Positions 696 through 43,101 are shown, counted from the stretch's first letter. The stretch: 64,000 nt of DNA from Minisyncoccota bacterium (GCA_040879725.1 JBBDJV010000015.1:32127-96126); one strand, 5' to 3'. Made by a program: numbers and translations. Notes: generated from the letters alone by a model not told the origin.

Positions 696-3600
696 GTGGA
701 TGTGTTTGAAATGAGATTAATTAACCTGCTAAAAAAAGATATTTGGGTCGTGGGAAGCTTGCTACTAATCGTGTTAGTAGTGAGTGGTAATACCTACCTT
801 AAGAATGTATACGCCGACCCGGTGATTGAGGACAGTGTGTATCTTCTCCCAACAAAAGTTGAGTCTGTTGGTTGGAATAATGTTTCAACTGTTGGAGTGC
901 AGGAAATTTCAAGTGACGGAACTTTGGGCGCATTCAACAAATCAAACTCTGCCTTTGTTATTTTCAAAAACGGAGAGTATGCAAAAGAGGAGGCGGTTAT
1001 ACCCGTGAGAGAAACTGGTGTACCGAAAGCTGAGAAGATAGATGTAGGGGAAACAAAGGAAACAGAAGGGCAAGAGAAGTTGGATAACGAAGAAAGTATA
1101 CAAGATTTTATTGCAACAACTACCGCTACGACCACAACAGATAAGTCTGTTTCTACCAGTACTCCAGTAGCAGAGTCTCTAGAACCAGAAAATGAAGAGC
1201 TCGAAGGTGAAGGTGAAGAGGAACAGTCTACAACAACAGACAGTGTGGAGAATCATAATGTTTCGGAAGAAGTGTCGGAAGAAGTAGATAGTGAAGAAAC
1301 TAGCACTTCTTCTGAGGAAGTAAATCTTGACACGCAACAGGAAATAAATGAAGAAGAAAATAATTCAGCTGTTGAGGAAGAGAGTACTGATTCCGTGGAG
1401 AATGAAAATAATGCGTCTTCTTCCGCGCCGGTAACACGTTTTTTAAATGCGATAAAACGAGCGGTATTTTCGCTTGTACCAAGTTTTGTATTTGCGGATG
1501 AGGTAAGCACAACAACTGAAACAAGTACACCCAAAGTTTCGAGTACTACTGTCCCCGTCGAAGAAGTAAGCTCTACTACATCAGTAACGACTACACCTCA
1601 AATCGTCACTTCAGAGGAAGAAAAACAGGCGACAGAAAAAGAAATAGAGGAAAAGCAGGTGGCGGTGCCAAGTAAACCAAGTGAAGATGAAGTGATTGAT
1701 ACTGAGGCTCCAACACTAACAGTCCTCGGAAATAACCCCGCGGTACTTGCTATTGGAAGTACATACAACGACCTTGGGGTTACGGTTAGCGATAATATAA
1801 ACAATAATCTCGGATTCAAGACATCTGTTGACGGAGTAGAGGTTAGTGTTGTTTCTCTTGATACAAAAAGTGAGGGTGTATACGAAATTACGTATAGCGT
1901 GGTTGATCAGGCAGGTAATACAGGAACTGCAAAACGTATGGTATATGTCGGTATTGAACCGGAAGAAAAGATTGTTTCTGAAGCAGAAAATGAAACCATT
2001 TTAGACACATTCACCTGCGATAATTCAGAAGCATGCACAACCAACGTTCTCGAAGTAAGTGGATTTGGTGTGGGAGGTGAAGTATTCGGGGAAGGCTTGA
2101 TAGACACTGCGCAGTTAAGAATTTCAATGGGTAGTAATATTGCGCACTCCAAAACAAATGAGTTGCCGTTGAAGCTCGAAATAGAATATTTTTATAATGA
2201 ATCATGGTTCAGTGCCGGCTCCATAGTGCTCGATGAGGAAGTTTCAAACGCGATAAATGGAGGATATTTCCTCTATGCTCTTCCGTTCTTTGAGTCATGG
2301 GCTGAGTTTGCAGATTTTAAAGTTCGAATACGTTATGACCATAATAAGGAACTTGAAGGAGGAGTTTACATCGATAGTATTTGGATAGAAGCTTTTTCAG
2401 GTGAAGGAATAAATAAAGAAGAGTTTGGGCTCACGAAAGAAGAAAAGAAAAGAGCTGAGATAGAAAAGGGAATGAAAAAGCCAAAACTTCATTCTGTCAT
2501 CAAAGGTAAACCAGCGTTTGAAATAGACGAAAATCCTGAATTTGAATTTGAGTATGAACTCCAACGCTCAAATATTTCTCGGTTTTTCCGAGGTTTGTTT
2601 AAAGATGATCCCGACTACCGAGTTAGCTCGGTTGAGATTAAAACCGCTTCAGGGCAAGATATTGACCTTCCTATTTCCTTGCGATACGGAGGTGGGGAGC
2701 GGTGGGGCTTTTCAGTAGAAAAAAATAACGAATCACTTCATCCTGGAAAATATGAAGTTTCAATAACCATTCATGAAGGAAGCAAGAGTTTTACGGATTC
2801 CTTTGAATTTTATTGGGGCGTACTAACAGTTAATACAAACAAGTCAATATATTCACCGCAAGAAACAGCATTGTTTTCAATGGCGGCATTGACGGACAAT
2901 GGACATACAATGTGTGACGCTATTCTTCGGTTGGTTGTCGTCGATCCGGATCAGTCAGAAACAGTTGTTCCTGTAGAAAAGTCAGGACTCTGTGATGGAA
3001 ACAATGTTATAGACGTTCCAGATTATTTTGGCGAAATGCAACTTGCGGGTGTTGGAGAATACCAAGTATCGCTTGAACGATATAACGAAGAGGGAGGTCT
3101 TGTTATTCAAACAAACGATATTTTTGAGGTAAGAGACTATGTACCGTTTGATGTGGAGAGAGAAGGTCCTACTCGTATTTATCCACCGGCACCTTATGTT
3201 ATGTCTATCTCTTTTAGAGCAAATGAAGCATTTGATGGAGTAATAACTGAAACAGTACCGAAAGGATTTATTATAGAAGAAAGCGAAGGGGCGAATGTCG
3301 TAGTCAAAGAAGACGTTGTAGAAATTTCTTGGCCGGTTTCAGTTCGTGCGGGTGAACGTATTTTGAAAACATACAGGTTTGATGCTCCTGATATTAGTCC
3401 GTATATATATGAAACCGGCCCACTTGTCTTTAAGAAAGAAATAGCAACAACATCATTTCAAGAAATGAGTACTTCTTCACCTCTGTGTAGCGAAGGATTT
3501 TGCGAAGAAGAAATTACAGAGGAGGTAGTATTTCAAGAAATTCGAACATGGAAAATTGCTTCTGACGCAGTGGGAAGAATGCTTATTTTGTGGGATGGAG

Positions 3601-6600
3601 GAGCTGCACCCGCCGGCTGGGAATGTGTATCATGTACTGGAGGGGATCCATTTTATCAAAGATTCATACGAGGAGGTGCTACCTATGGCGGAACGGGTGG
3701 AAGTGCAACTCACACTCATACTGCTTCAGTGTCAGTTGGGGGCCCTTCTGCAACTACCGGACAAACACCAGGAGGTTCGACTGTTTCAGGCTCAGGGCAT
3801 ACTCATACGTTCACTCCAACTGTAAGTTCCGCAAGCAATTTGCCTGAGTATCGTCAGTTGAGAGTATTACGTTCAACCAGCGCGGGAACTCCAGCAACAC
3901 TTCCTGCGGGAGCAATTGTTTTCTTTACCGATACAGTTCCAACTGAGTGGACTCGATACAGCGCGCAAGATGGACGTTTTGTTCGAGGTGAGAGTGGCGT
4001 TGGGACAACAGGAGGTGCAAACACTCACAGTCATACTATTACTGGTACCACCGGCGCGGCAAGTGGGGACACGTACGGCACTCAAAATGGACAGACGAGA
4101 GCGGATGTCGCTCAAGTAAACCACACGCACAGCGTATCTGGTTCAACCGATTCAGTAAGTAATACTCCTCCATACATAGAAACCATTTTAGGGAAAATTG
4201 ACGCAGACGGTTCTCTTCCAATTGGAATGCTCGCAATGTGGGATGAGGATGTTCCTGTAGGTTGGAATCACAAATCTGAATCAGGGGATCCATTTTTTGA
4301 GCGTTTTATTCTCCCTTCAGCTACATATGGAACAATCGGTGGGAATATAACTCATAGTCATGCTAATCAGAATATCGTGAGTGGAGGTCCTGCTCAAACT
4401 ACAACAGCTCGAGCAGGCGGTAATGTTTCTTCATCGGATCACACACACACTATTAGTTTAACAAGCTATTCGTCTCCGAGTCACCTGCCGCCATATATTA
4501 ATGTTGTGATAGCGGAGTTTTTGGGCACAGATCCCGTTTTCACACAAGCTCAATTCAGATGGTATACGAATGCTAATGTCGAAACTCCAACCGACGCATG
4601 GCCACAAGGAAGCACACTTAACTTAAACGAAAATGAACCAATTACTGCTACTTCTACACCGGTATCACCAGATGACGTTGTGCGTCTTCGTATGGCTGTT
4701 GGGGTAGGTAATGCAACATCTACCGCAGGTTCAGTTAACTTTAAATTGCAGTACGGTCAAGGTTCTGTTTGTAGCGCAGTAACAACATGGAGTGATGTAG
4801 GAGAAATAAGCAGTTCAACGCCGTGGATAGGATATGACAATACGAGTGTTCTGGATGGTGTTGAGTTATCTTCAACAACTCTCTCTCTTTCTAATGTGTT
4901 TGGTTCATATGAAGAGGAAAATAACTCAACCACAACACCAAATGATATAAGTGTTGGCGAGTATGTTGAGTATGATTGGGTTATTCAGCACAATAACGCT
5001 ACGAGTGGTGTTCCGTATTGTTTCAGAATGGTAGAAGGTGACGGTACTCAGTTTTTCACTTATACATCGTATCCTAAATTACAAACTAACTCTGCTCCGA
5101 ATACTCCGACTCTCGATCGTTTGTTTGATAATGAAAAAATTGCTTCAACTTCTCCACATTTTTGGTTTGATGCTGAAGATGATGAAGGTGATGCGTTGTA
5201 CTATCAGATACAAGTTGATGAGGATTTTGCCTTCGGATCTGTACTTATAGATAACAATTCTCAATCTCACGGAGATCAGTTTACAAACCTTATAAATCCT
5301 TCTCAAAAGGAGCCATATACTGAAGGAAATACAGTTCAGTTTATTCCAAGTAGCTCACTCTCAAACAATACAACGTATTGGTGGAGGGTTCGTGCATGGG
5401 ATCCTAATGGGTCTGAAGACTATGGAGAGTGGTCTGAACCACAAAGCTTCACAACCGATTCGAATATTGTTGAGTCTACATGGTTTCAGACAACAGACGA
5501 GCAGTTTGATACCAACACACTTAACGGAGTTAGGACGTTGGGAACAGATGCAGTTGAATTGAATGTTGGCTCAAGTACGGGTTCTATGTACTCAACATTT
5601 ATTGATTTTTCAGATGGTACGTATGGAAATATATGGGAAGAATTTTCATTTAATGACGCCGAAACAACTGGATCAATAAGTTATCAGGTTGAATACCAAA
5701 CAGACGAAGGGGCAGAGTTAGTTCCTGATAGTATTCTTCCTGGGAATAGTACAGGATTCGGTACTTCACCCGTAAATCTTTCAGGGGTAGATCCGGAAGT
5801 GTATGACAATCTTCGACTGGTAGCTAACTTTACCAATAGTGGTGGTAGTCCACAATTGCTTGATTGGACACTCAAATGGGGAACAAAAATCGATACTCCG
5901 ACATTACTTCTTCCTTTTGCAAATGAGCGTTTTCCAACCACCACACCAACATTCACATTCACTACTACAGACCAACAAAGTGACGATCTTCAGTATGAAG
6001 TGTCATGGTCAACCGTGTATGATTTCACATCCTCAACTACTCGAAACTCATCATTGCATGCCGGTTTTGCTAATACTGAAGATAGTGGAGACTCTGATCC
6101 ATTTACATCGGGAGATACGATTAGGTTTACAATACAACCTGCTGATGCTCTAACTGCTTCCACTACCTATTGGTGGAGAGTCCGCGCAAAAGACCCAAGT
6201 GGGGGTAATGCATTTTCTGACTGGTCTGAACCAAGAAGTTTTACCCATAATTATTTGGATGTTGTATCAACGTGGTTCCAAACTACCGATGAGCAATTTA
6301 ATACGAACATTCTTTCCGGAACACGAAGTACGGGTAGTGACTCTCTTACTGTCGCAACAACTTCGAACGAAGCTATGATTGTATACGGGGAAGGAGCAGT
6401 AACTACTCCACAGTTTCGAATATGGAACGGTTCGTCATGGTCGAGTGAAAGCAGTGCGCTTAGCGTAGACTCTCAAATAAATTGGGTGGCAGTAAAAGAA
6501 GCCCCTACAAGAGAAGAGTATGTTCTCGGAACACTTGGATTAGATAGTGATGTTAATGTTCAGGTATATAGTGAGGGTATTTGGGATAATCTCCTCGAAG

Positions 6601-9600
6601 TTACTGCTAGTATTAGCAATGCAGATAAACGCGGTTTTGATATTACGTATGAATCAATTTCAGGTGATGCTATGGTTGTAAGTTGTGATGGCGATTCAAA
6701 TCCTACGTACTACACATGGAATGGTTCGTCATGGTCATCACCGGGTACTATAACAACTTCCACAGGAAGTAGCTGTGAGTGGATTCGACTTGCGTCTAAT
6801 CCTGTGTCGGACGAAATTATTATGGTTACTCTGCCGGGTGGAGGAGGTCAATATGAAGCTCAAGTATGGAATGGTTCAGCGTGGGGAAATGCTGTGGTGT
6901 GGGGAGGCATGAGTGAAGCACATGAAGGAATTGGTGTTGCGTATCAACCAAACGGTGCCCTTGCTGTTGTTACTGTAAACAATGATGGTTCAACACCTCC
7001 AAACCGTATGTCATCTCGTACATGGAATGGTTCATTTTGGAGTGGTACTACCGATACAAACGTTGGATACTTTGAACAGGGAACGCTGGTCGCTGATGAT
7101 GGAACAAATAACATGAACCTCTGTTTTGTAAATGACGCTACAACGGTTCAAGGGTTACCGTGGACAGGCACAGCGTGGGGAACGCAAACACAGCTTGATG
7201 CAACCGCCCACGCGAAGAATGATCGCCCGGTTGACTGTGTATACGAAACTACAAGCGGAAGAGATGGAAATGTTTTGACTGCATACAGTGACACAACATC
7301 AGCTCGGTACAGTGTGCTTAGCGGGGGAACCTGGTCTGCTGAAGCAAGTATCAGCACTATCAGTCGTTCCGCAACGGTTCAGCTTGAACGTGTTGGTGAT
7401 GGACTTATTTTGGGAACCTTCTTCGATCATGTAAATGAGCGATACGACTTCTCTTATTGGAATGGTAGTGCATGGTCAACTGCACAAACGCTCGAAAATA
7501 CTCCGTCGGTAAGTTCTGCTCCATTTAAAGAACCGTTTATGATGGCTGCTCGCGGACCGGCAACTAGTGGTACGGTAGCGGTATCTCCGGGTATTGTATT
7601 TTCAGATGGGACCGGTCCGTATTGGGGTGAATTGTCATTTAGTAATACGACTCCTGGAGCAAGTGGGGTGCTTTATCAAGTACAGTACGCAACTGCTACA
7701 ACATATGAGCTTATTCCGGACGTAGACCTTACTGGCAACTCAACAGGCTTTACTACATCACCAGTTGATCTTACCGGTTTGGATATTACTACGTATGATA
7801 CTATTCGAGTCAGAGCGACACTTACCTGTGATGGTTCTGACTGTCCAACTCTAGATGATTGGACGGTGACGTGGGCTGAAGGCGCTACAGTGTCGGGTAC
7901 CATTGCAGAACATGATGAGACAACTGCTGTAACAGAAGGGACGGTAGCTGTTGCGGTAAATGGAGTATTGCAAACAGGTAAAACGGGTGAAATCCAAGGT
8001 GACGGAACATGGAGTATAACCAATGTTACTGCATTTGTTGATGATATTATTACCGTATTTGTAAGTGGCGCAACAAGTGAGAATAAGGCTGTCGCTGTTA
8101 CAAAGTATGATGGGGTGGGAGATATTACAGGCATTGAATTACATGAGCGACATCTTACATTTGGATCAGATGATACCTCGCCTGTTATTACAAACAGCGA
8201 TTTGGGACTTTTCGATATTGCTGTGGGAGGAAGTGATGTGTTCTTTGATGTGGACGCATCGAATAACTTAGTTGCAACTTCAACAGGAGGTGGTTTTGAC
8301 GATGTTGTTGTGTACGTAACTTCTGGAACAACATATAGGCCTGACAGTACATCAAGTGGAAATGTCTCCACTCACGATATTGCTATTTTAGGAACGATAA
8401 TGGCAGACGGAAACACAATTTCACTTTCAGGTTCCTGGAGAAATAGTAGTACTTTTAGTGAGGGTACGAGTCACGTTGTCTTTACCGCTCTAAGTGGTTC
8501 GGAAAGTATAGATTCTACAGGGGCGAGTGCGAGCAATTTTTATCGAGTTACCTTCGGACAAACTTCTGGTACTGCAACATGGTTACTCTCCACACCTCTT
8601 GTGGTAACAAACAACACTGCTGTTAATTACGGAACGTTATCTCCAGGCTCACAAACTCTTTCTTTGGGAGGTAATCTTGCTATTGGTTCAAGTGGTCTGT
8701 TTACTAAAGGTACCGCCACAACAACATTTAACGGAACGGGCAGTAGTGTTTGGTCTGATGCGTCTTCCTTAAAGCAGGATATGGGAATTGTTGTTATTGA
8801 TGGAACAAGTAAAACCGTTACTCTTGGTTCAAATGTTCAAGCAACTGATATTGTTATAGGAGCTAATGATACGTTTGATATAACAACAGGAAACTACAGC
8901 ATAGGTGTAAATGGTTCATGGACTAACAATAATACTTTTCTTTCACGACAGGGAGAGGTAAACTTTACCGGTTCGTCATTTGGAGTTTCTATTTTACCTG
9001 GCTCATCATCTTTTTATAACCTTTCATTTGGTGGAAGCGGCTCGTGGACTTTTGGTTCTACTAATATCACCGTAGTAAATGACTTTAGTATTTCAAATGG
9101 TTTTGTTACGCTTCCGAGCGGAACCACTACCATTAGTGGTTCGTTTCTTGCGACTGCGAGCGGGTCTTTTGCAGGGAATACCGGAACTGTCCTCTTTACC
9201 GGTTCATCTGGATCGGAAAGTATTAGTCAAAATAATTCAAGTTTTTATAATCTTGTACTCAACGGAAGTGGCTCTTGGTCATTTAGTGAGCAAAATGCAA
9301 CCACAACAAACAACGTTCAAATCCTTAGCGGTACGCTAACCGCTCCGTCTGGTGCATTAGCTATTGGAGGTTCATTTACAAATGCTGGAACATTTACTCA
9401 CAATAGTGGCGCACTTCGTTTTTACTCAAGTGGTGATAGTAAGGTAGTACAACCAGGTCTATCTTCCATAAATGACATTATTTTTGATGGATCAGGAGGC
9501 TGGGTTCTTTCTCCATCAGCAAATATAACTGTTTCCGGTGATGTGAGTATTATTTCAGGAACAGCAACATCAACAGCAGAAACACTTTCTGTTGGAGGTT

Positions 9601-12600
9601 CGTGGCTAGTTGGTCCCTCAGGAATATTTAATCACTACGACGGAACTATTGCTTTTAATTCAAGTGATACAGGCGAAACTATTGCTTCAGGAAATTCACC
9701 TTTTGGAACCGTTAGCTTCAATAACTCAAATGGAGGATGGGCTGTCACAGAGAACGCCACATCAAGTTCTGGTTGGAATATTACTGACGTATCTGAATTT
9801 ACCGTTGAGTCAGGTGTGGTTGTGGCTGTTGGTGGTGATTTTAGTAATGATGTCGGAGGTGCGGAAACAACATGGACAGGATCGACTTTGGTTTTAAATT
9901 CCAATACCCCATTCTCAATAAATGATAAATCAACCGGAAGTGACGAGTATGCTTCTATTGTTTTAAATAGTGGCACTAAAGTGAGTATGTGGAATTCGAG
10001 CGCAACGGCGGTTAGTGCTAACAGCGATTCTTATTTATATTCACAAGATCATGCTGGTGTAGATGGAAATCTTTATATTTGGGGTGAGTATGTGCGTTCA
10101 TCAGGTGTGGAGCATTGGAGCCATGCGACTGACTTTGACGGAACCAGTCTTTCTGGTAGTGAACGAGCTGTTTCTGTTTTGTTTGACTCAGGAGCTAGTG
10201 CGGAAATAAATAACTCAACGCTTTCAATTGTTGGCGGAGTGGGAGCAACAACAACAATTAATAATCAAGGAAGTGGAGCATACTCTCTTTCAGTAGTAAA
10301 TAGTACAACCACTGCACAGTATTATGCATTCAGGAACTTAGATAGTAGTGGTTTTGTTTTAACAGGAGAAACGTCTGTTACTTCATTATCAAATGGAGAT
10401 TTTGAATTATCAGCAGATGGAGGTTCACTTGTAACACTTTCTGCTGAAACAATCGATGAGAATCCAACATTACAGATTAGCCGGGTTCGTTTTGCAACCT
10501 CAACAGGAATAACGTCTGGATTTAACGTTACCGCAACAGGAACACCTACTTCGTACTGGTGGTATAGGAATCATTATGGCAATTATGCTGGAGAAGCGTT
10601 TGATAATGATCCGGGAGATAACCCTGGAAATATTCGTTGGGATGACAGCAATCTTTCAATCACTGTTTCGGGAATAGTCTATTATTCTGATCGTGCTACT
10701 ACAATGGGTAGTCCTGTGTGTGATGGAAGCACTAACACTGTTCGTGTAGATGTTCAGGGAGGAACAGGGGGAAGTGCTCCGTGTAATGCAACAACTGGAG
10801 AATTTTCAATCGAAGGGGTGTCATTAAGTGGAGACGGAATAGTAACAACATATCTTGATACAAATGGTGGATCACGCGCGGTGGCGATATCAAAAACTCC
10901 AACCGCAGACATAACTAATCTTGGACTATATGAAAGTTGGCTTACAATTAGGAACGAAGATGTGAATTCGGTATCAATATCTGACCTTGTTGCCTTTGAT
11001 AGCTCGGGTGATTCTGATGTATTCTTCTCTGCAAATGAAGGCTCACCGGATACGTTGGTCTTGGAGGATGGTTTTGGATTATATGTTGAAGAAGGGAAGT
11101 CTTTTTCACCTAATGGAAATATAACACTTGTTTCAGGGAGTACTGATTTCGTTGCGGGAACATTTGAGCTGGGAACAAGTAGCCTTTTGACGTTTAATGA
11201 CGGAGAAGACCATGCAGTTGGCGGAAGCTTTATAGTAGGGACTAACGCAACCGCAACAGTAGCAAGTTCAAGTCTTACCTTTACCGCTACAACTTCCGGA
11301 AAAACCATTACACCTAATGGCTCATCACTCTATGATGTTGCCTTTACTGGTGTTGGTGGCGAATGGGAACTTAGTACCTCGAGTATTACGGGGGACTTTG
11401 TAGTAACCGCGGGAACTGTTGTTGGAACTTCAGATGTTTTGGTAACCAGCGGTTCAATAACCGGAAATGGCGTGCTTGCATTTACTGATGGCGCAGTAAC
11501 ACTTCAGAAAGCAGGAAACTTCGGAGGTTCGGAAAACTGGACATTCGCTAACTTGGTATTTGGTGACGGTACAACAAATGCAACTACAACAAAAATTGGA
11601 GCGAATAATATTCTGGTGGAAAATCAATTAACCATAGACACAAATCATGTTCTTCTTGCAGGAGATGATGAGTGGGAATTAGGAGGAAGTGGTACTCCGT
11701 TTGTAATTTCAGGAGACTTTGACGCGGAAACTTCAACCGTTACCTATAGTGGGACAAGCGCGACAACAGTTACTGCCGAAGAGTATAACGCTCTTACTCT
11801 TGCACCGTCTGGAGCGGGATCTCCAAACTACACTCTTGCCTCAGGGTCCTTTATTCTAAATACATTAGTAGTAGGTGACGGGGTTAATACGGTTTCGGTT
11901 AATGCAAACACCACTGATCCTTTAGTAAATGTAAATGGTGATGTAACAATAAATAGCAACGCAACATACGTATCATCAAATAGCTCATTGCTTTCCGTGG
12001 GGGGAAGTTGGACAAACAATGGTGCCTTTACGCATAGTAATGGAACGGTACTATTTAACTCAAGTGACACGGGAGAAATTGTATCTTCAGGTAATTCAGC
12101 GTTTGGAAATCTTCTATTTAGTAATGTTTCAGGCGGATGGGCTATTTCAGGAAATGCAACAACAAGCGGTAATTTAATTCTCGCATCAAGTACTTCCTTT
12201 ACTCTTTCTCCTGGTAGTACGCTTTCGGTTGGTGGGATGTTTGAAAACCAACTTGATGGAGGAGTAACAACATGGGACGGAACAACATTGGTTCTCGAAG
12301 GTGCGGTAGGATACTCAGTCAATTCAGCGACAAGTACAGGGGATACATACAATACATTAGTTATTGATGAAAATACCGATGTCCGCCTCTGGTCCTCATC
12401 CGCAGGAACCACCACTGTCGCAAGTACCGCATCACTCTACTCACAAGACCACGCAGGAGTAGACGGTGACCTCTACATCTGGGGAGACTATCGCCGAACT
12501 ACCGGTAATGACTACTGGAGCTATGCTACTGACTTTGACGGAACCGCACTTACCGGAGGAAGTGAACGACAAGTAAACGTACGCTTTGCTCCAAATGCTT

Positions 12601-15600
12601 CTACTACAGTAACCGGTGGAAGTTTGCAGATTATCGGAACATCAGATGCTACGACGACTATAGATAGGCAGAGTACGGGGAATTACGGTATTGAGATAGA
12701 AGGTGGTACGTTCACGGCTTCTTACTATAGTTTTGAAAATATGGGTTCTCGCGGACTTGGGTTTAGCGGAACACCGACAGTAACAAATATTTCAGATGGA
12801 GATTTTGAGTTGGGACTCGAAGGACAGACGCTCATAACGGTAGACGCAAGTGTTATTGATGCAAATCCAACTAAAACATTCAGTAGAAATCGTTTTGCTA
12901 CAGCAGGTTCTGTTACGAGTGGAATAAACGTTACTGTGGAGGGAACGTCCGTAAGTTCGTGGAGGTTTAGTGACCACTATGGTGATTTGGACGGTGAAGC
13001 AAATGACAGCGATCCAGGCGGTGATCCAGGATATGTTATTTGGGATGATAGCGCGGGAGATATTACTGTATCTGGTGTTGTGTATCAGAACGATAGAGTT
13101 ACTCCTGCTGGTGGAGCAGTGTGTGATGGAACAACGAATGTCGTTCGGCTTTTGGTGGAGGGAGCGGGTAGCTACTTCGTGCCGTGTGCTTCAGGAACAG
13201 GAGTATACACAATACCAAGTGTAACTTTCTTACCGAGCGATGTCTTCACGGTATTTCTTGATAATGCATCCGAAGATGCTGTAGCGGTAACGTACGGAGC
13301 ACTTACCAGTATTGCAAATATGCACCTTTATACAGATCACGTAATAGTGCGTCACGAAGGAGTAGACCCGATTACCATAAGTGAACTTGCGGTATATGAT
13401 GGAGGTGATGATGCGGATATTCCGTATACAACAACCCTAACTCCCGACACACTTTCTACTGGAGCGGGTACCGCTCTCTATGTATGGCAAGGAAAAACAT
13501 TTACTCCGGGAGGAGATGTGACGGTTACGGGAAATGGTACAACCAATGAGTATGACGGTACGCTGTATGTGTGGCAGAATGCAAATTTTGTTGCCGAAGG
13601 CAGTGAGTATTTCACTATCGGAGGAAGCTTGATTGCGAGCTCGAGCGCGGTTATTACCAGTGCTAGTTCAGATTTTGACTTTACTTCAACCGCTACCGGA
13701 AAAGTGGTACGCACAAACAGCTCGCCACTAGCTTCAGTTACATTCTCAGGTAGTGGAGGCGCGTGGTCCTTCCCCGAAACAACCGTTTCAGTGGAAGATG
13801 ATTTTACCATTACTGCTGGATCGGTAAGTCTTCCTGTGGGCACAACGACAGTTGCCGGATCATTTATAAATAATGGAGGAACCTTCACGCATAATAGTGG
13901 AACAGTGCAGTTAAATGGAACAGAAGTTGGTAATTCAATTCAAGTTGGTGGATCAGACTTCTATAACCTAACAATCGGAGGTACGGGTTCTTGGACATTC
14001 CTTGATACCAATGCAACCACAACAAATCAACTTCGCTTTGAGTATGGCTCAACAACGCTTCCGTCAGGGGTACTTACTGTGGGCGCTACACTTACTTCTG
14101 TAAATGGAACCTTTAATCACAACAACGGAGATGTGAAATTTATTTCTACCAGTTCAGGTAATGTTATTACCCAAAAAGGCTCAGGATTTGGCGGAATAAC
14201 TTTCGATGGTACTGGAGGATCTTGGTCATTTGCACAAAGTGTCGCTACTACTACCAAGGACTTCGCTATTGTAAACGGTTCGGTTGCATTACCGACAGAC
14301 ACGCTTCGGGTCGGAGGTTCGTTTATTAACGAAGGTTCATTCAGTCACAGTACCGGTACGGTGTTAATGAATTCCGCACTTACGGGAGAGGTAATAACTC
14401 CGGGAAGTGATCCATTCCATAACCTAACAATACAAAACAGCGCAGGGGGATGGACGCTTACCGGTTCAGCTACCACAACAAATAACTTTAACCTTTCTAC
14501 CAGCACAAGCTTTACTCTTGTTCCGGGTTCAACCTTGAATGTCGGGGGTTCATTTACAAATACCTCGGGCGGTGCGGGAACTTCGTGGGACGGAACGACG
14601 ATAAACCTTACTGGAGGCAATAGTTATTCAATAAATGGACGATTAAGCTCCGGAGATGAATACAATACTCTGGTAGTATCTACAACAACAAAAGCTCGCC
14701 TCTGGTCCTCATCCGCAGGAACCACCACTGTCGCAAGTACCGCATCACTCTACTCACAAGACCACGCAGGAGTAGACGGTGACCTCTACATCTGGGGAGA
14801 CTATCGCCGAACTACCGGTAATGACTACTGGAGCTATGCTACTGACTTTGACGGAACCGCACTTACCGGAGGAAGTGAACGACAAGTAAACGTACGCTTT
14901 GCTCCAAATGCTTCTACTACAGTAACCGGTGGAAGTTTGCAGATTATCGGAGCATCAGATGCTACGACGACTATAGATAGGCAGAGTACGGGCACGTATG
15001 GTCTTTCTGTGCTCGGAGGAACAGTAAATGTAGATAGATATCAGATAAGAAATATTGATGAATTGGGATTGTATATTTCTGGACAACCTACCGTTACCAG
15101 TCTTTCAAATGGAGATTATGAGCTCGATAAAGAGGGTGGTTCAATGATTACTGTTTCTTCCACAACGATTGATTTCAACCCATCGCTCTTTATTGGTGGT
15201 GCAAAATTTGCAACATCTACTGGAATAACAAGTGGATTCAACGTGACGTTGCTGGGAACACCAATAAATGCGTGGACTTTTACTGGGCATAGCGGAAATT
15301 ACGATGGAGAAGCATATGACAGTGATGGTGGAGATGCATGTGGAAAAATACGATGGAGTGACAGTGTGTGTCTCTTTGTAAGTCAAGAAAGCTATAGATT
15401 TAGAAATGATGACGGAGGGGAAGGGGTCCCTAATGACGAGTGGTACCATTCAGATTGGGATAAACGTATGAGAATTGCGATTACAAACGCTTCCACTTCA
15501 GCGCTCACAAATCAACAAGTAAAAATTGAGTTACCAAAGGCCACTGATATGCAAAGTGATTACGGAGACCTTCGGTTTACCGACAACTCAGGAACAACGA

Positions 15601-17660
15601 CAATTGATTATTGGATTGAAAGTTACACAACAGCAACTTCAACTGTGTGGGTAAAAGTTCCAAATCTCCCAGCAGAAGAAACCACTGGTATATACGTGTA
15701 CTATGACACTGTAGCAACACTCGATACTGATGGGGTAGCCACATCAACATTGATCGTATACGACGGTTTTGAGGATAACAATATAAGTGAGTATTCAGGG
15801 GACACTAGTATGTTTTCTGTATCGACAGGTTTTGATTTTGAGGGAACCTATGGACTTACATCTTCTTCAGGAAATGAAGACCAAAGAACAACAGATGGTA
15901 TTTACCGCACAGGTACAGGAAGTACCGTTTCGCAAGGAGAAACGATACATTTTGCACAATATATTGATACCTCGCTCGGTTTTCAGGATGAACCGTGTAT
16001 GGTGTTTGGTGTGCAAACACCGGGGTCAAATAATGAAAACTATGCAGTGTGTTTGGATGTATTTGGAGATTCTGTTGTTATTTCAAAAGATGTTTCTTCA
16101 AATGATGGTTCAGGAACAATACTGGCAAGCGATACTTCGGTAGGATTTTCAAGTGGGTGGTATGAAGTTGAGATTGACTGGCTCACAAGCGGAGTAATTA
16201 ATGTTGCTGTATACGATGATTCCGGTGCGCTCTTTTCTGAAGTAAGTACCACGGATTCAAGTTATAGTTCCGGAGGGTATGGATTTGGTTTTTGGATTCA
16301 GTACGGAGGATGGGATTATGTAAGTTCTTGGAAATATACTGAAGTTGTGCCGACGTATACGATTGGTATTGAACAAGTGGGTGAAGGTGCAACGTGGAGT
16401 AGTGCCGAAAACAGCCCTCTTGCGGGGCAGTCAGTAGGTGAAGATATGCGACTTCGATTCCTTGTTCAAAACTCAGGTCCGGAAATTACTGATCAAAACT
16501 TTAGATTACAAGTTGCATCAAAGGAGGGGTATGGTAGCTGTTCGTCTGTACCATACGGAAGCTTCAGTGATGTTCCTGTAAGTGGAAGTTGTGGATCCTC
16601 AGTTGCGTGTATGTCTACATCAAGTCAGGTGGTTAATAGTGCTTTAACCACACAACTGCTCTCTGTTCCTGATAGCGTGACTTTTACGCAAGGTCGTTTT
16701 GTTGAAAGTCCTTCAAACCAAACGTCAAACATTGATATCGGAACTAATCTCTATACTGAAGTTGAATATATATTTGATCTGACAAATTACGCCGTAGATT
16801 CCGCATACTGTTTGAGAACGACAGATTCTGGAACACCACTTGATAACTACGCGAATATTGCAGAGGTAAGTTTGATCCATGCCCCGACAATCACAAACTT
16901 TAACCTAAATGATAATCAGAATATTGAACTCTCAGTTGGGGCATCTACAACCATTTATGCGACAGGAACAGTAATTGACCTAAACGGATATGAAGATTTA
17001 GTGTACGCAACATCAAGTATTTATCGAACCGGTGTGGGGGCAACGTGTACTCCTGATGACAATTCATGTTATCAGGTTGCAAGTACGTCTTGTTCATTTG
17101 TAAATTGTTCTGGAAACAGCTGTGACGTGATATGTAGCGCTGACATTGCTTTCTTTGCGGATCCAACCGATGGTGGAGTGTTTGAGGCGGAAGAGTGGGA
17201 AGCTGAAATAACGGTGGTGGACCAAGGTGAGATTAGAGATACTGGTATTACCATGGGTGTTGAAATGGGAACACTTCGAGCACTTACTGTCGAAAATGAA
17301 ATTGATTACGGAACACTCGAAGTGGCAAGTAACACAGGAGATGCCAATGCAACAAGTACGGTAATTAATAAAGGAAATGACACTATTGATGTAAATCTGT
17401 ATGGTACTGACTTGGTGGGAGGTGCTAGTACGATTTCGGTAAATAATCAAAAGTTTGCAACGTCAACATTCTCATATAGTGCTTGTACTATTTGTCCATT
17501 TCTTGATAGTTCTCCTGTTCCTGCAGGTATTGATTTGAGTAAACCGACAACTACGGTGCCCGTAATGACTGAAATTTACTGGGGGTTGAATGTACCAATA
17601 GGTACCGCGGGTGTACCTCACTTTGGACAAACGACATTTGAAGCTACAGGAAGTGAGTAG
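696..17660 (+). CDS. giant (5,654 aa) multidomain secreted/surface protein, likely an adhesin
   Basis: A single uninterrupted ORF, starting at GTG 696 or ATG 711. It has an N-terminal hydrophobic anchor/signal, an acidic S/T-rich linker, an Ig-like module, three tail-collar repeats, FN3-like 'YWWRVRA' modules, a 'WNGSSWS' repeat run, very long Gly/Ser/Thr/Asn beta-helix-like repeats, DUF2341-like and LamG-like modules, and a C-terminal domain shared with the 22397..24229 protein. Confidence 0.85.
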   Translation: MDVFEMRLINLLKKDIWVVGSLLLIVLVVSGNTYLKNVYADPVIEDSVYLLPTKVESVGWNNVSTVGVQEISSDGTLGAFNKSNSAFVIFKNGEYAKEEAVIPVRETGVPKAEKIDVGETKETEGQEKLDNEESIQDFIATTTATTTTDKSVSTSTPVAESLEPENEELEGEGEEEQSTTTDSVENHNVSEEVSEEVDSEETSTSSEEVNLDTQQEINEEENNSAVEEESTDSVENENNASSSAPVTRFLNAIKRAVFSLVPSFVFADEVSTTTETSTPKVSSTTVPVEEVSSTTSVTTTPQIVTSEEEKQATEKEIEEKQVAVPSKPSEDEVIDTEAPTLTVLGNNPAVLAIGSTYNDLGVTVSDNINNNLGFKTSVDGVEVSVVSLDTKSEGVYEITYSVVDQAGNTGTAKRMVYVGIEPEEKIVSEAENETILDTFTCDNSEACTTNVLEVSGFGVGGEVFGEGLIDTAQLRISMGSNIAHSKTNELPLKLEIEYFYNESWFSAGSIVLDEEVSNAINGGYFLYALPFFESWAEFADFKVRIRYDHNKELEGGVYIDSIWIEAFSGEGINKEEFGLTKEEKKRAEIEKGMKKPKLHSVIKGKPAFEIDENPEFEFEYELQRSNISRFFRGLFKDDPDYRVSSVEIKTASGQDIDLPISLRYGGGERWGFSVEKNNESLHPGKYEVSITIHEGSKSFTDSFEFYWGVLTVNTNKSIYSPQETALFSMAALTDNGHTMCDAILRLVVVDPDQSETVVPVEKSGLCDGNNVIDVPDYFGEMQLAGVGEYQVSLERYNEEGGLVIQTNDIFEVRDYVPFDVEREGPTRIYPPAPYVMSISFRANEAFDGVITETVPKGFIIEESEGANVVVKEDVVEISWPVSVRAGERILKTYRFDAPDISPYIYETGPLVFKKEIATTSFQEMSTSSPLCSEGFCEEEITEEVVFQEIRTWKIASDAVGRMLILWDGGAAPAGWECVSCTGGDPFYQRFIRGGATYGGTGGSATHTHTASVSVGGPSATTGQTPGGSTVSGSGHTHTFTPTVSSASNLPEYRQLRVLRSTSAGTPATLPAGAIVFFTDTVPTEWTRYSAQDGRFVRGESGVGTTGGANTHSHTITGTTGAASGDTYGTQNGQTRADVAQVNHTHSVSGSTDSVSNTPPYIETILGKIDADGSLPIGMLAMWDEDVPVGWNHKSESGDPFFERFILPSATYGTIGGNITHSHANQNIVSGGPAQTTTARAGGNVSSSDHTHTISLTSYSSPSHLPPYINVVIAEFLGTDPVFTQAQFRWYTNANVETPTDAWPQGSTLNLNENEPITATSTPVSPDDVVRLRMAVGVGNATSTAGSVNFKLQYGQGSVCSAVTTWSDVGEISSSTPWIGYDNTSVLDGVELSSTTLSLSNVFGSYEEENNSTTTPNDISVGEYVEYDWVIQHNNATSGVPYCFRMVEGDGTQFFTYTSYPKLQTNSAPNTPTLDRLFDNEKIASTSPHFWFDAEDDEGDALYYQIQVDEDFAFGSVLIDNNSQSHGDQFTNLINPSQKEPYTEGNTVQFIPSSSLSNNTTYWWRVRAWDPNGSEDYGEWSEPQSFTTDSNIVESTWFQTTDEQFDTNTLNGVRTLGTDAVELNVGSSTGSMYSTFIDFSDGTYGNIWEEFSFNDAETTGSISYQVEYQTDEGAELVPDSILPGNSTGFGTSPVNLSGVDPEVYDNLRLVANFTNSGGSPQLLDWTLKWGTKIDTPTLLLPFANERFPTTTPTFTFTTTDQQSDDLQYEVSWSTVYDFTSSTTRNSSLHAGFANTEDSGDSDPFTSGDTIRFTIQPADALTASTTYWWRVRAKDPSGGNAFSDWSEPRSFTHNYLDVVSTWFQTTDEQFNTNILSGTRSTGSDSLTVATTSNEAMIVYGEGAVTTPQFRIWNGSSWSSESSALSVDSQINWVAVKEAPTREEYVLGTLGLDSDVNVQVYSEGIWDNLLEVTASISNADKRGFDITYESISGDAMVVSCDGDSNPTYYTWNGSSWSSPGTITTSTGSSCEWIRLASNPVSDEIIMVTLPGGGGQYEAQVWNGSAWGNAVVWGGMSEAHEGIGVAYQPNGALAVVTVNNDGSTPPNRMSSRTWNGSFWSGTTDTNVGYFEQGTLVADDGTNNMNLCFVNDATTVQGLPWTGTAWGTQTQLDATAHAKNDRPVDCVYETTSGRDGNVLTAYSDTTSARYSVLSGGTWSAEASISTISRSATVQLERVGDGLILGTFFDHVNERYDFSYWNGSAWSTAQTLENTPSVSSAPFKEPFMMAARGPATSGTVAVSPGIVFSDGTGPYWGELSFSNTTPGASGVLYQVQYATATTYELIPDVDLTGNSTGFTTSPVDLTGLDITTYDTIRVRATLTCDGSDCPTLDDWTVTWAEGATVSGTIAEHDETTAVTEGTVAVAVNGVLQTGKTGEIQGDGTWSITNVTAFVDDIITVFVSGATSENKAVAVTKYDGVGDITGIELHERHLTFGSDDTSPVITNSDLGLFDIAVGGSDVFFDVDASNNLVATSTGGGFDDVVVYVTSGTTYRPDSTSSGNVSTHDIAILGTIMADGNTISLSGSWRNSSTFSEGTSHVVFTALSGSESIDSTGASASNFYRVTFGQTSGTATWLLSTPLVVTNNTAVNYGTLSPGSQTLSLGGNLAIGSSGLFTKGTATTTFNGTGSSVWSDASSLKQDMGIVVIDGTSKTVTLGSNVQATDIVIGANDTFDITTGNYSIGVNGSWTNNNTFLSRQGEVNFTGSSFGVSILPGSSSFYNLSFGGSGSWTFGSTNITVVNDFSISNGFVTLPSGTTTISGSFLATASGSFAGNTGTVLFTGSSGSESISQNNSSFYNLVLNGSGSWSFSEQNATTTNNVQILSGTLTAPSGALAIGGSFTNAGTFTHNSGALRFYSSGDSKVVQPGLSSINDIIFDGSGGWVLSPSANITVSGDVSIISGTATSTAETLSVGGSWLVGPSGIFNHYDGTIAFNSSDTGETIASGNSPFGTVSFNNSNGGWAVTENATSSSGWNITDVSEFTVESGVVVAVGGDFSNDVGGAETTWTGSTLVLNSNTPFSINDKSTGSDEYASIVLNSGTKVSMWNSSATAVSANSDSYLYSQDHAGVDGNLYIWGEYVRSSGVEHWSHATDFDGTSLSGSERAVSVLFDSGASAEINNSTLSIVGGVGATTTINNQGSGAYSLSVVNSTTTAQYYAFRNLDSSGFVLTGETSVTSLSNGDFELSADGGSLVTLSAETIDENPTLQISRVRFATSTGITSGFNVTATGTPTSYWWYRNHYGNYAGEAFDNDPGDNPGNIRWDDSNLSITVSGIVYYSDRATTMGSPVCDGSTNTVRVDVQGGTGGSAPCNATTGEFSIEGVSLSGDGIVTTYLDTNGGSRAVAISKTPTADITNLGLYESWLTIRNEDVNSVSISDLVAFDSSGDSDVFFSANEGSPDTLVLEDGFGLYVEEGKSFSPNGNITLVSGSTDFVAGTFELGTSSLLTFNDGEDHAVGGSFIVGTNATATVASSSLTFTATTSGKTITPNGSSLYDVAFTGVGGEWELSTSSITGDFVVTAGTVVGTSDVLVTSGSITGNGVLAFTDGAVTLQKAGNFGGSENWTFANLVFGDGTTNATTTKIGANNILVENQLTIDTNHVLLAGDDEWELGGSGTPFVISGDFDAETSTVTYSGTSATTVTAEEYNALTLAPSGAGSPNYTLASGSFILNTLVVGDGVNTVSVNANTTDPLVNVNGDVTINSNATYVSSNSSLLSVGGSWTNNGAFTHSNGTVLFNSSDTGEIVSSGNSAFGNLLFSNVSGGWAISGNATTSGNLILASSTSFTLSPGSTLSVGGMFENQLDGGVTTWDGTTLVLEGAVGYSVNSATSTGDTYNTLVIDENTDVRLWSSSAGTTTVASTASLYSQDHAGVDGDLYIWGDYRRTTGNDYWSYATDFDGTALTGGSERQVNVRFAPNASTTVTGGSLQIIGTSDATTTIDRQSTGNYGIEIEGGTFTASYYSFENMGSRGLGFSGTPTVTNISDGDFELGLEGQTLITVDASVIDANPTKTFSRNRFATAGSVTSGINVTVEGTSVSSWRFSDHYGDLDGEANDSDPGGDPGYVIWDDSAGDITVSGVVYQNDRVTPAGGAVCDGTTNVVRLLVEGAGSYFVPCASGTGVYTIPSVTFLPSDVFTVFLDNASEDAVAVTYGALTSIANMHLYTDHVIVRHEGVDPITISELAVYDGGDDADIPYTTTLTPDTLSTGAGTALYVWQGKTFTPGGDVTVTGNGTTNEYDGTLYVWQNANFVAEGSEYFTIGGSLIASSSAVITSASSDFDFTSTATGKVVRTNSSPLASVTFSGSGGAWSFPETTVSVEDDFTITAGSVSLPVGTTTVAGSFINNGGTFTHNSGTVQLNGTEVGNSIQVGGSDFYNLTIGGTGSWTFLDTNATTTNQLRFEYGSTTLPSGVLTVGATLTSVNGTFNHNNGDVKFISTSSGNVITQKGSGFGGITFDGTGGSWSFAQSVATTTKDFAIVNGSVALPTDTLRVGGSFINEGSFSHSTGTVLMNSALTGEVITPGSDPFHNLTIQNSAGGWTLTGSATTTNNFNLSTSTSFTLVPGSTLNVGGSFTNTSGGAGTSWDGTTINLTGGNSYSINGRLSSGDEYNTLVVSTTTKARLWSSSAGTTTVASTASLYSQDHAGVDGDLYIWGDYRRTTGNDYWSYATDFDGTALTGGSERQVNVRFAPNASTTVTGGSLQIIGASDATTTIDRQSTGTYGLSVLGGTVNVDRYQIRNIDELGLYISGQPTVTSLSNGDYELDKEGGSMITVSSTTIDFNPSLFIGGAKFATSTGITSGFNVTLLGTPINAWTFTGHSGNYDGEAYDSDGGDACGKIRWSDSVCLFVSQESYRFRNDDGGEGVPNDEWYHSDWDKRMRIAITNASTSALTNQQVKIELPKATDMQSDYGDLRFTDNSGTTTIDYWIESYTTATSTVWVKVPNLPAEETTGIYVYYDTVATLDTDGVATSTLIVYDGFEDNNISEYSGDTSMFSVSTGFDFEGTYGLTSSSGNEDQRTTDGIYRTGTGSTVSQGETIHFAQYIDTSLGFQDEPCMVFGVQTPGSNNENYAVCLDVFGDSVVISKDVSSNDGSGTILASDTSVGFSSGWYEVEIDWLTSGVINVAVYDDSGALFSEVSTTDSSYSSGGYGFGFWIQYGGWDYVSSWKYTEVVPTYTIGIEQVGEGATWSSAENSPLAGQSVGEDMRLRFLVQNSGPEITDQNFRLQVASKEGYGSCSSVPYGSFSDVPVSGSCGSSVACMSTSSQVVNSALTTQLLSVPDSVTFTQGRFVESPSNQTSNIDIGTNLYTEVEYIFDLTNYAVDSAYCLRTTDSGTPLDNYANIAEVSLIHAPTITNFNLNDNQNIELSVGASTTIYATGTVIDLNGYEDLVYATSSIYRTGVGATCTPDDNSCYQVASTSCSFVNCSGNSCDVICSADIAFFADPTDGGVFEAEEWEAEITVVDQGEIRDTGITMGVEMGTLRALTVENEIDYGTLEVASNTGDANATSTVINKGNDTIDVNLYGTDLVGGASTISVNNQKFATSTFSYSACTICPFLDSSPVPAGIDLSKPTTTVPVMTEIYWGLNVPIGTAGVPHFGQTTFEATGSE
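3574..4520 (+). other. three tandem phage tail-collar (MdpB-like, Pfam Collar-type) repeats inside the giant protein
   Basis: The recurring motif chain is 'G.L..W.G..P.GW..C.G' ... 'RF.RG...G..GG...HTH(T)' ... 'LPPY/TPPYI..I'. The three instances end NLPEYRQLRVL, TPPYIETILGKI and HLPPYINVVIAEF. Confidence 0.6.
12384..12680. repeat. intragenic near-identical direct repeat, copy 1 (about 297 bp)
   Basis: The nucleotide string 'cgcctctggtcctcatccgcaggaacc...gcagattatcgga' is identical to 14697..14993 except for one mismatch. Confidence 0.9.
14697..14993. repeat. intragenic near-identical direct repeat, copy 2
   Basis: This copy lies 2,313 bp downstream of copy 1 and encodes the same ~99-aa block (RLWSSSAGTTTVASTASLYSQDHAGVDGDLYIWGDYRRTTGNDYWSYATDFDGTALTGGSERQVNVRF...). 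A diverged third copy is at ~9981..10280. Confidence 0.9.
15440..15710 (+). other. DUF2341-like module in the giant protein
   Basis: 'DWDKRMRIAITNAS...QQVKIELPKA...DYGDLRFTDNSGTTTIDYWIESY...TVWVKVPNL...GIYVYYDT' follows the DUF2341 pattern W..R..I.I......L..FP.L...F.D..G..L..E.E...........WVK.P.L....I.MYYGN. A LamG/ConA-like region follows. Confidence 0.45.
16870..17657 (+). other. C-terminal ~260-aa domain of the giant protein, homologous to the C-terminal half of the 22397..24229 protein
   Basis: Aligned blocks: YRTGVGATCTPDDNSCY ~ YRSGVTAASC..DPNNCY; FFADPTDGGVFEAEEWEAEITVVDQ ~ FLADATDAGSFYAAEDWRATVTATDD; NQKFATSTFSY ~ NQKFGTTTTGY; EIYWGLNVPIGTAG ~ DIYWGIGIPGTITFAG. Confidence 0.7.
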
Positions 17661-29358: not shown

Positions 29359-29928
29359 ATGGATGATGTATACGAAAAGAAAATATACGAATACTACCTG
29401 CGAGAGAAACGAATTCCCGTGTATCGTGTTATTGCAAAGCTTTGTGGTTTCGCTTCTACAAATGCCGTAAGTCGTTTAGTAACACGGTTGCTCGAGTCAC
29501 GCTTCCTTGAACGTAATTCTCGAGGAAAATTAATTCCCGGAGCGCGTATGGGAAGTGTTCGTTTGCTGGGTCTTGTTGAGGCGGGTTTTCCTTCTCATGC
29601 TGAAGAAGCTGACTTAGACACGATAACCATAGATGAATTTTTAATCGAGAATAGAGAAGCGAGTTATATGTTAAAGGTAAAGGGTGACTCTATGATCGAC
29701 GCTGGTATTTGTCCGGGTGACTTTGTTATTGTAGAGCGAAAGAATACCGCAAAAGTGGGAGATATTATCGTTGCCGAGGTGGACCAGGAATATACGATGA
29801 AATACTTGGCAGAGAAAAATGGAGTGAGATATCTCAAGCCTGCAAATAAAAAGTATCGACCTATTTTCCCTTGTGAAAGTCTAACAATAGTTGCAGTAGT
29901 TCGTTCAGTGATCAGAAAATATGCATGA
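29359..29928 (+). CDS. lexA: LexA-like repressor (wHTH plus S24 peptidase domain)
   Basis: N-terminal wHTH. The catalytic Ser is in 'KGDSMIDAGI' and the Lys in 'TMKYL', with the same spacing as LexA/UmuD. Confidence 0.8.
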   Translation: MDDVYEKKIYEYYLREKRIPVYRVIAKLCGFASTNAVSRLVTRLLESRFLERNSRGKLIPGARMGSVRLLGLVEAGFPSHAEEADLDTITIDEFLIENREASYMLKVKGDSMIDAGICPGDFVIVERKNTAKVGDIIVAEVDQEYTMKYLAEKNGVRYLKPANKKYRPIFPCESLTIVAVVRSVIRKYA

Positions 29929-43050: not shown

Positions 43051-43079
43051 TCCACAAAACTCTCCAAAAGTGCTAGAAT
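43051..43079 (+). promoter_or_regulatory. candidate promoter with extended -10 for ileS
   Basis: 'tccaca', a 17-nt spacer, then 'TGcTAGAAT'. This places the transcription start after the ORF-track ATG at 43078. Confidence 0.4.
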
Positions 43080-43101
43080 GACTACATTCGGGCACTTTTT
43101 T

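Follow-up and report, generated by a model that had tools for sequence, protein, structure and literature searches.

An ordered triplet of phage fiber-tip-like repeats in a giant surface protein from a Patescibacteria genome: a probable single-chain pseudo-trimer

Introduction

Why does a giant protein, encoded among ordinary chromosomal genes, carry what looks like a phage tail-fiber domain three times in a row, and are these three domains or one? The question is raised by a stretch of 64,000 nucleotides from a Minisyncoccota bacterium (GCA_040879725.1 JBBDJV010000015.1:32127-96126), to which we refer throughout as the window. Its plus strand contains an open reading frame (ORF) of 5654 amino acids (aa) at 696..17660 that carries the three copies in frame; the listed start is a GTG at 696, and the first Met is residue 6 (window 711, from the translation). 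A preliminary description read positions 3574-4520 as an array of three tail-collar domains embedded in a cellular surface protein. The answer that we favor, as a reasonably probable one, is that aa 960-1280 constitute one folding unit: a single-chain pseudo-trimer of a trimeric phage fiber-tip domain, with two putative six-histidine metal sites and with candidate recognition loops.

Results

We consider first the repeats themselves. The three tandem copies proposed in the preliminary description are present, each of about 105 aa, and together they occupy aa 960-1280 (window 3573-4535, plus strand) with pairwise BLASTP E-values from 4e-11 to 2e-22. The earlier start agrees within one base with the codon boundary at 3573, while the earlier end falls about 15 nt short of 4535. 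Repeat r1 is found at 3573..3899 (aa 960-1068), r2 at 3900..4214 (aa 1069-1173) and r3 at 4215..4535 (aa 1174-1280), all on the plus strand. A profile of 63 repeats from 30-odd proteins, called A3 here and containing the three window repeats themselves, matches r1 over aa 961-1060 (E 5.9e-31), r2 (E 1.7e-31) and r3 (E 5.1e-28). In pairwise comparison r1 and r3 share 46% identity (E 2e-22), r1 and r2 34% (E 4e-11), and r2 and r3 30% (E 2e-12). No repeat is detected at the DNA level across the triplet stretch, so the triplication is old; a recent tandem duplication was considered and rejected on this ground and on the protein identity of just 30-46%.

The chain of tail-collar motifs that had been read into each repeat holds in part. 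The GG...H(T/S)H element is present in all three repeats and P..W is kept, with deviations elsewhere. The P.GW position reads PAGW in r1, PTEW in r2 and PVGW in r3, and the Cys is found in r1 only; the F.RG position reads FIRG, FVRG and FILP, and the C-terminal motif LPEY, TPPY and LPPY, in the same order. The N-terminal hairpin motif of the Collar family, GxIxxφ(x)nPxGWxxCdG, is present as MLILWDGGAAPAGWECVSC in r1, and in r2 (AIVFFTDTVPTEWTRYS) and r3 (MLAMWDEDVPVGWNHKS) the P..W is retained and the Cys is absent. The second repeat is without the 'GDPFYQ' insert and has the family-typical WTRYSAQDG.F.RG. The signature with which the Collar family ends, 'F.LPDLRGR', is absent from the window repeats, which have PFYQRFIRG, DGRFVRG and PFFERFILP instead.

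Every repeat contains a second H(T/S)H, absent from the preliminary description, about 29-32 residues after the first. The whole 5654-aa protein has six HxH motifs, all of them in the triplet and at equivalent repeat positions (47/49 and 76/78 in r1 and r3, 43/45 and 75/77 in r2). The first motifs of the three repeats, H1006-T-H1008 (3711..3719), H1111-S-H1113 (4026..4034) and H1220-S-H1222 (4353..4361), are proposed to form a metal site A, and the second motifs, H1035-T-H1037 (3798..3806), H1143-T-H1145 (4122..4130) and H1249-T-H1251 (4440..4448), a metal site B, all on the plus strand. The triplet, with its 321 residues, holds 14 of the 58 histidines of the protein where 3.3 would be expected (hypergeometric P 3e-6). 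The four histidines of a repeat, both of the first motif and both of the second, are invariant across the 63 repeats of A3, and besides them there is one invariant Pro only.

The segments between the two motifs behave differently from the rest. These inter-HxH loops of 26-29 residues, at 3720..3797 in r1 (aa 1009-1034), 4035..4121 in r2 (aa 1114-1142) and 4362..4439 in r3 (aa 1223-1248), on the plus strand, are the most variable segment of the repeat, with a mean column entropy of 3.09 bits versus about 2.0 in the cores, and we propose that they are exposed or in contact with a ligand. In three relatives (P0071, P0075, P0131) one repeat is split by an insert of about 200-415 aa, and in each case the insertion point is located between the HxH motifs (at about positions 50-77 of the profile); the loop therefore tolerates whole domains.

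What could such histidines do? In T4 gp37 and gp12, R-pyocin fibers and P2 gpV, three HxH copies give an octahedral six-histidine site for Fe(II) or Zn(II) on the axis (PMC6116203; PMC11705849), and the HxH motifs of T4 gp12 bind one metal on the threefold axis (PMC6116203). In the fiber tips (gp12, gp37, pyocin) the three copies come from three chains, whereas in the window protein they come from one. The twelve invariant histidines could instead be a catalytic or redox metal centre, and the module an enzyme or a binder of metal or siderophore. It suits such a reading that the histidines are absolutely conserved while the remainder varies, that the scaffold is reused in six-copy and insertion-bearing variants, and that HxH fibers have been proposed as iron carriers of phages (PMC11705849). 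The HxH sites in the solved homologs, however, are buried, coordinatively saturated and structural, located on the fiber axis (PMC6116203); no similarity to an enzyme family is seen in Pfam, NCBIfam or the Protein Data Bank (PDB); and the domains that co-occur with the module are lectin- or Ig-like, not catalytic. We consider a catalytic or redox role quite unlikely.

The next question is whether the triplet exists as a unit in other proteins. A search with the repeat profile over 1.84e9 representative proteins gives 4058 proteins at E<=1e-3, of which 521 reach E<=1e-30, that is, a family of at least 4058 clusters at 50% identity. Nearly all of the best 150 of the 4058 matches have 3 or 6 matched stretches. 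Copies were counted with hmmsearch in 198 proteins (197 fetched and the window protein, which shows three full-length repeat domains): exactly 3 are found in 153 and exactly 6 in 23, together 176 of the 198. The exceptions that were examined are short or truncated sequences, proteins with repeats split by inserted domains, or truly single-copy phage-like proteins. For 429 of the 459 repeats of three-copy proteins (93%) the nearest neighbor is the repeat with the corresponding ordinal number in a different protein, a smaller set giving the same result, and the six-copy proteins read 1-2-3-1-2-3 by repeat type. The triplet is thus one obligatory ordered unit, with r1, r2 and r3 types in fixed order, and the 'array' of the preliminary description, with its three independent collar domains, is replaced by this unit. 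Both the copy numbers in multiples of three and the near-exclusive invariance of the histidines are accounted for if the domain needs three HxH copies.

With which organisms and domains is the unit found? A scan of reference genomes with a five-sequence alignment and two peptide patterns, which gives a sample and not a census, yields 29 loci. They are mostly from Patescibacteria (Saccharibacteria, Paceibacterota, Kaiserbacteria, Parcubacteria, Kazan, Dojkabacteria); the others are two archaeal loci (Woesearchaeota, Methanobacteriota) and single ones with Chloroflexi, Elusimicrobia and Pseudomonadales labels. Domains that co-occur in relatives are DUF2341, Laminin_G_3 (a ConA-like lectin) and Ig_Rha78A_N, and the precomputed Pfam domains of the 41 closest homologs include none over the module. 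One relative, P0036 (638 aa, from a JGI metagenome and apparently N-terminally truncated), has the tail of a third repeat followed by r2- and r3-type HxH repeats, with an RHS repeat-associated core (PF25023) and a C-terminal tail as fusion partners; judged from its sequence, this would place the module on a protein of the polymorphic-toxin type. The DUF2341, lectin and Ig-like partners, the RHS fusion and the mostly Patescibacteria loci point to recognition of another cell's surface.

Two further relatives may belong together: P0001 breaks off within an r1-type repeat, and the rest of such a repeat opens P0002. For both the longest contig listed has 16872 bp, the length also of CAWCZQ010000006.1. 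By their sequences they look like one frameshifted or mis-called gene with two ordered triplets and a beta-rich spacer between, and the spacer resembles the domain that follows the triplet in the window protein.

We turn to the structure prediction. The AlphaFold2 model of residues 948-1295 (36 homologs) folds as one body, with a predicted local distance difference test (pLDDT) value of 89.6 and a predicted template modeling score (pTM) of 0.84. Equivalent strand patterns are seen in r1, r2 and r3, and the pLDDT dips only in the inter-HxH loop of each repeat. When r3 is modeled alone, with a deeper alignment, the values are 75 and 0.48; the N-terminal strands and the C-terminal strand are confident (>90), and the HxH part (residues 31-95) has no secondary structure and a pLDDT of 57-80, versus 94-98 in the triplet (77 in the loop), a loss of confidence that is suggestive and not decisive because the two models used different alignments.

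This result bears on the possibility that the three repeats are beads on a string, each a collar-like domain that folds and binds alone. Consistent with it, r3 keeps a confident collar-like N- and C-terminal subdomain by itself, and tandem Ig-like and other domains are common in the giant protein. A string of independent domains, however, would leave unexplained a copy number quantised at 3 or 6, ordinal positions that are orthologous throughout the family and in the six-copy proteins, the pTM of the triplet, and the failure of the HxH-bearing two thirds of a repeat to be predicted as folding alone. A lone pair of HxH motifs, moreover, cannot complete the six-histidine site of phage fibers (PMC6116203). 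Independent domains are in our judgment unlikely.

The compact model also bears on a different arrangement, in which the giant protein is a homotrimeric fiber and each repeat pairs with its equivalents across chains to form three successive trimeric knobs. The characterised relatives (T4 gp12, gp37 and gp10, Pa223 gp60) are all homotrimers, and the module lies in-line within a long, probably extended protein, as it would in a fiber. Such a fiber, however, would put no constraint of multiples of three on the copy number and would not keep three position-specific repeat types through the history of the family, and AlphaFold2 gives a compact and confident body from a single chain. In addition, the monomer models of the two phage proteins described next superpose on the whole triplet (TMq 0.57-0.62). 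We assign little probability to the homotrimeric arrangement.

The preliminary description had suggested comparison of a predicted structure with phage receptor-binding domains, and the outcome is divided: the confident model has a fold match among viral proteins and nothing significant in the PDB. Foldseek against the PDB gives matches with template modeling (TM) scores below 0.1 throughout. Against BFVD, the triplet model matches Pas29 (E 3.6e-14, TMq 0.62) and Pas28 (E 4.8e-14, TMq 0.57), both with probability 1.00. These are proteins of the Actinoplanes phage phiAsp2 (NC_005885; UniProt Q6J803 for Pas28 and Q6J802 for Pas29), and they are the only viral matches to the whole triplet. A tblastn search of 50,697 phage records likewise finds these two alone, with 26.5% identity over query residues 94-315 (E 2e-4). 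The weaker BFVD matches, named 'tail fiber protein' and 'phage tail collar domain containing protein', have a TMq of about 0.3 and cover about one third of the model, or about one repeat.

The genes pas28 and pas29 are adjacent in a tail gene block (NC_005885.1 3472-10190), and the HxH repeat module is present in the products of both. Like the triplet, Pas28 comprises three tandem repeat copies (aa 732-1148 of Pas28), and the record of Pas29 reads 'possible receptor recognizing protein; contains HXHY motifs; similar to phage TuIa tail fiber'. The phage proteins belong to a tail module and measure about 940-1290 aa, in contrast to the cellular surface protein of 5654 aa, and their repeats are longer, with more HxH motifs in each. 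The sequence identity to Pas28 and Pas29 is low, so the resemblance is not due to a recent transfer.

Are the repeats then tail-collar domains, as was first proposed? As members of the Pfam Collar family (PF07484, gathering score 24 bits), they are not: with a cut-off as loose as E<=10, hmmscan matches it neither to the region nor to one of the repeats taken singly, and a 2000-aa segment and the 388-aa region are also without a match at E<=0.1. PHROGs and NCBIfam, searched with the region and the single repeats, give nothing meaningful, and a direct hidden Markov model search of T4 gp10, gp11 and gp12 is insignificant. Matches of the region or its repeats to KIF1B, FdxA and phrog_24063 were rejected as chance-level; the phmmer matches in the PDB to 7tm3 and 7tut ('nascent chain'), which align a Gly/Ser-rich tag region, were rejected as compositional. 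The profile of the whole module has no match in the PDB, and that of the repeat has marginal ones only, the Pa223 tail fiber 9nxk (E 0.03) and 7z47.

By the refuting condition that the preliminary description named, the lack of a significant match to the tail-collar profile or structures, its reading would have to be given up. A link is nevertheless obtained through intermediates. In a database of 5.8 billion sequences, A3 finds single-copy proteins of 113-200 aa (E 2.9e-9 to 2.7e-3) that show the chain 'G.I..WSG...IP.GW.LCDG..(T)PDLR.RF.VG...GG..THTH...H.H...N.LPPYY.L.YIMK' and keep TPDLRDRF. A profile of eight of them (A4) aligns with A3 along the whole repeat (hhalign probability 99.4%, E 1.4e-21, 101 columns). 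Below threshold, the single-copy relatives are matched by Collar only in the N-terminal hairpin motif (profile positions 1-22, E 1.1e-4 to 7e-3), and by Gp10_C (PF21939) in P0046 (E 1.9e-4, profile positions 40-125 of 139) and P0050 (E 6.9e-3, positions 29-138); Phage_fiber also appears among their Pfam matches. The wider A4 family has more than 7041 members, and among the 120 listed PF07484 occurs in 28, PF21939 in one and PF03335 in one, while three carry the JGI name 'microcystin-dependent protein'. In tblastn, P0052 matches genes annotated as tail fiber, tail collar or short tail fiber in 201 phage records, down to E 4e-13.

The tail-collar identity thus stands at the level of the superfamily, by the profile alignment and the phage relatives, and not as membership of PF07484 as defined. 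The window repeats are members of the Collar / gp10_C / gp12 superfamily of phage fiber tips, and they are too divergent for the Pfam family as currently defined; on the sequence evidence the link to Collar is transitive, through the single-copy intermediates, and not direct.

Comparison with the named families locates what is shared and what differs. With PF07484 / COG4675 MdpB the window repeats share GxIxxφ...PxGWxxC.G, a glycine-rich 'GG' turn, HxH and a C-terminal 'N.PPY..φ.φI' strand, and they have '(P)F..RF.RG' where that family has its 'LPDLRGR' signature. Its members are single-copy and presumably homotrimeric, in contrast to the ordered intrachain triplet. T4 gp12 has, by eye, the same order of elements (IPVGAIMMW...W.FC.G...PDMRGLFVRG...GGY...HKH...NISLNYIIKV). 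For the C-terminal domain of T4 gp10 (PF21939), the sub-threshold matches from the single-copy relatives cover most of the model. Scores for T4 gp37 (2XGF), Pa223 gp60 (9NXK) and PF03335 are below significance, and those tips are long needles of three identical chains, whereas the window module would have two HxH layers, contributed by three non-identical repeats in a single chain. In the homotrimer Pa223 gp60, the tip resembles that of T4 gp37 (preprint 10.1101/2025.06.11.659172).

Discussion

Combining the ordered triplet, the histidines and the predicted fold, we can propose how the module may be built. Each repeat would consist of a collar-like subdomain, in which N-terminal strands ('GxIxxW...PxGW...RFxRG') pair with a C-terminal strand ('PPYIxVVIA'), and of a central beta segment that bears the two HxH motifs. 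The three central segments would interlock around a pseudo-threefold axis, with the collar-like subdomains at the periphery. In this arrangement an octahedral Fe(II) or Zn(II) site would draw its six histidines from the first HxH motifs of the three repeats, and a second site, stacked on it, would draw six from the second motifs, so that the two axial sites would copy the three-chain HxH sites of phage fibers. The inter-HxH loops may cluster on one face and provide a ligand-contacting surface. With its 'chains' fused, the head would need no trimerisation and could be built in-line into a giant protein that is monomeric and anchored in the membrane. Its likely function would be recognition of, or adhesion to, a cell-surface ligand, a glycan or a protein, plausibly on the host cell of this Saccharibacteria-like episymbiont.

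Several observations weigh against this single-chain pseudo-trimer and its proposed role. Neither the Collar nor the Gp10_C model of Pfam matches the window repeats, and the PDB fold searches yield no significant match to a solved structure. The pseudo-threefold symmetry and the His-His geometry are drawn from the pTM, the DSSP pattern and the analogy with phage fibers, and the r3 comparison carries the difference in alignments given above. The triplet is located at aa 960-1280 of 5654, not at the distal end of the protein. Finally, between the window protein and a close ortholog, the loops are 77-86% and the cores 86-93% conserved, and at this evolutionary distance the comparison shows nothing of the diversifying selection that receptor-binding tips typically undergo; the idea of loops that are hypervariable between close orthologs was dropped, the loops being only slightly less conserved than the cores.

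The ortholog in question is the closest genomic relative of the module, found on a 140-kb contig (CAYTAR010000002.1) of a metagenome-assembled genome of an uncultured Candidatus Saccharibacteria. It is collinear with the window protein from the N-terminus, with 84% identity in the module, 69% in the upstream flank and 77% in the downstream flank. The window itself contains genes for NusG, thymidylate synthase (ThyA) and kinase (Tmk), ArgRS, MetRS, RecO, RecA and FtsK, together with a class I synthetase, a class II synthetase, an ABC/FtsX pair, and cohesin- and dockerin-bearing proteins. From these core-chromosome genes and the Saccharibacteria ortholog it follows that the host is a Saccharibacteria-like member of the Patescibacteria and that the preliminary assignment to a cellular surface protein was correct, NusG, RecA, FtsK and the several aminoacyl-tRNA synthetases bearing out the cellular context.

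The alternative, that the window holds a prophage or phage remnant and the gene is a phage tail fiber in an only apparently cellular context, draws on two facts given above: the whole-triplet viral matches are tail-region proteins of an actinophage, and the single-copy relatives are mostly phage-like tail fiber proteins. It has against it the core-chromosome content of the window, the collinear ortholog on the Saccharibacteria contig, and a phage structural domain in none of the 30 other ORFs scanned in the window. The make-up of the protein itself also counts against it: the N-terminal segment is hydrophobic, and Ig-like, DUF2341 and beta-helix-like sequence extends over 5654 aa. A phage origin of the locus is in our view hardly credible.

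The remainder of the giant protein has the following features. The hydrophobic stretch near its N-terminus, IWVVGSLLLIVLVVSG (aa 16-31), is read as a probable signal anchor. Pfam places Bact_surface_Ig-like at aa 341-418, Ig_Rha78A_N at aa 1480-1587 and DUF2341 near the C-terminus, and beta-helix-like sequence is also part of the protein. Further downstream the gene contains a super-repeat of 2.3-2.4 kb (window 10038-14944, plus strand), with copies that start near 10038, 12438 and 14751. Within it, 12332-12631 and 14645-14944 are 92% identical over 300 nt, and this duplication is far more recent than the HxH triplet.

A few other genes of the window deserve mention. The genes for a dockerin-bearing protein (25283-26416, plus strand; Dockerin_1, Big_6, DUF4215) and a cohesin-bearing protein (27539-29272, plus strand; Cohesin, Big_13) follow the giant gene at a distance of a few kb, and their domain content suggests a cohesin-dockerin surface assembly in a small-genome bacterium. 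At 29359-31148 (plus strand) an S24 peptidase (LexA/UmuD-like) adjoins a Y-family polymerase (IMS, IMS_C), a umuDC-like pair that looks ordinary. A class I aminoacyl-tRNA synthetase of 1168 aa (43078-46584, plus strand; tRNA-synt_1, Anticodon_1, DUF5915) has a His_Phos_1 domain (PF00300, E 9.7e-34) inserted at aa 511-672 between its parts. We know of no described counterpart for a histidine phosphatase insertion in a class I synthetase. ARAGORN detects no tRNA or tmRNA genes in the 64-kb window, intron-bearing tRNA genes not having been searched for.

Conclusions

Collar-type domains in bacterial proteins and HxH metal sites in fibers are already known. What is new is the ordered single-chain triplet, together with its large family, of at least 4058 clusters, and the fact that the loci recovered come mostly from genomes of Patescibacteria. 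No description of an obligatory ordered single-chain triplet of this fold was found in the libraries queried or the literature searched, the latter covering pseudo-trimeric tail collars, phage-fiber-like adhesins of Saccharibacteria, giant proteins with the module and a giant-gene preprint. The architecture of the family is sharply defined, and neither Pfam nor NCBIfam nor PHROGs annotates the family; with a triplet model in the style of Pfam, a segment that recurs in many 'dark' giant proteins would gain an annotation. For protein evolution it offers a clean case, in which a fold that needs three chains was apparently fused into three specialised repeats of one chain. If the module is a single-chain pseudo-trimer, it should be monomeric, and each chain should bind two metal ions.

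What may the triplet mean for the organisms that carry it? Type IV pili are the main experimentally supported host-binding factor so far in episymbionts, and cultivated Saccharibacteria parasitise Actinomycetota. PMC11623550 describes the ways in which ultrasmall episymbionts identify their hosts and bind to them as largely unknown. The triplet is a candidate host-recognition module for them. We would go further only as a doubtful and tentative conjecture: the ordered HxH triplet may be a host-recognition device of episymbionts (Patescibacteria and some archaea), a phage tip fused into a single-chain head that helps to decide to which host the cell attaches. If this is true, then, since whole-module viral counterparts are found only in a phage of Actinomycetota, phages and epibionts would read the same kind of surface with the same fold.

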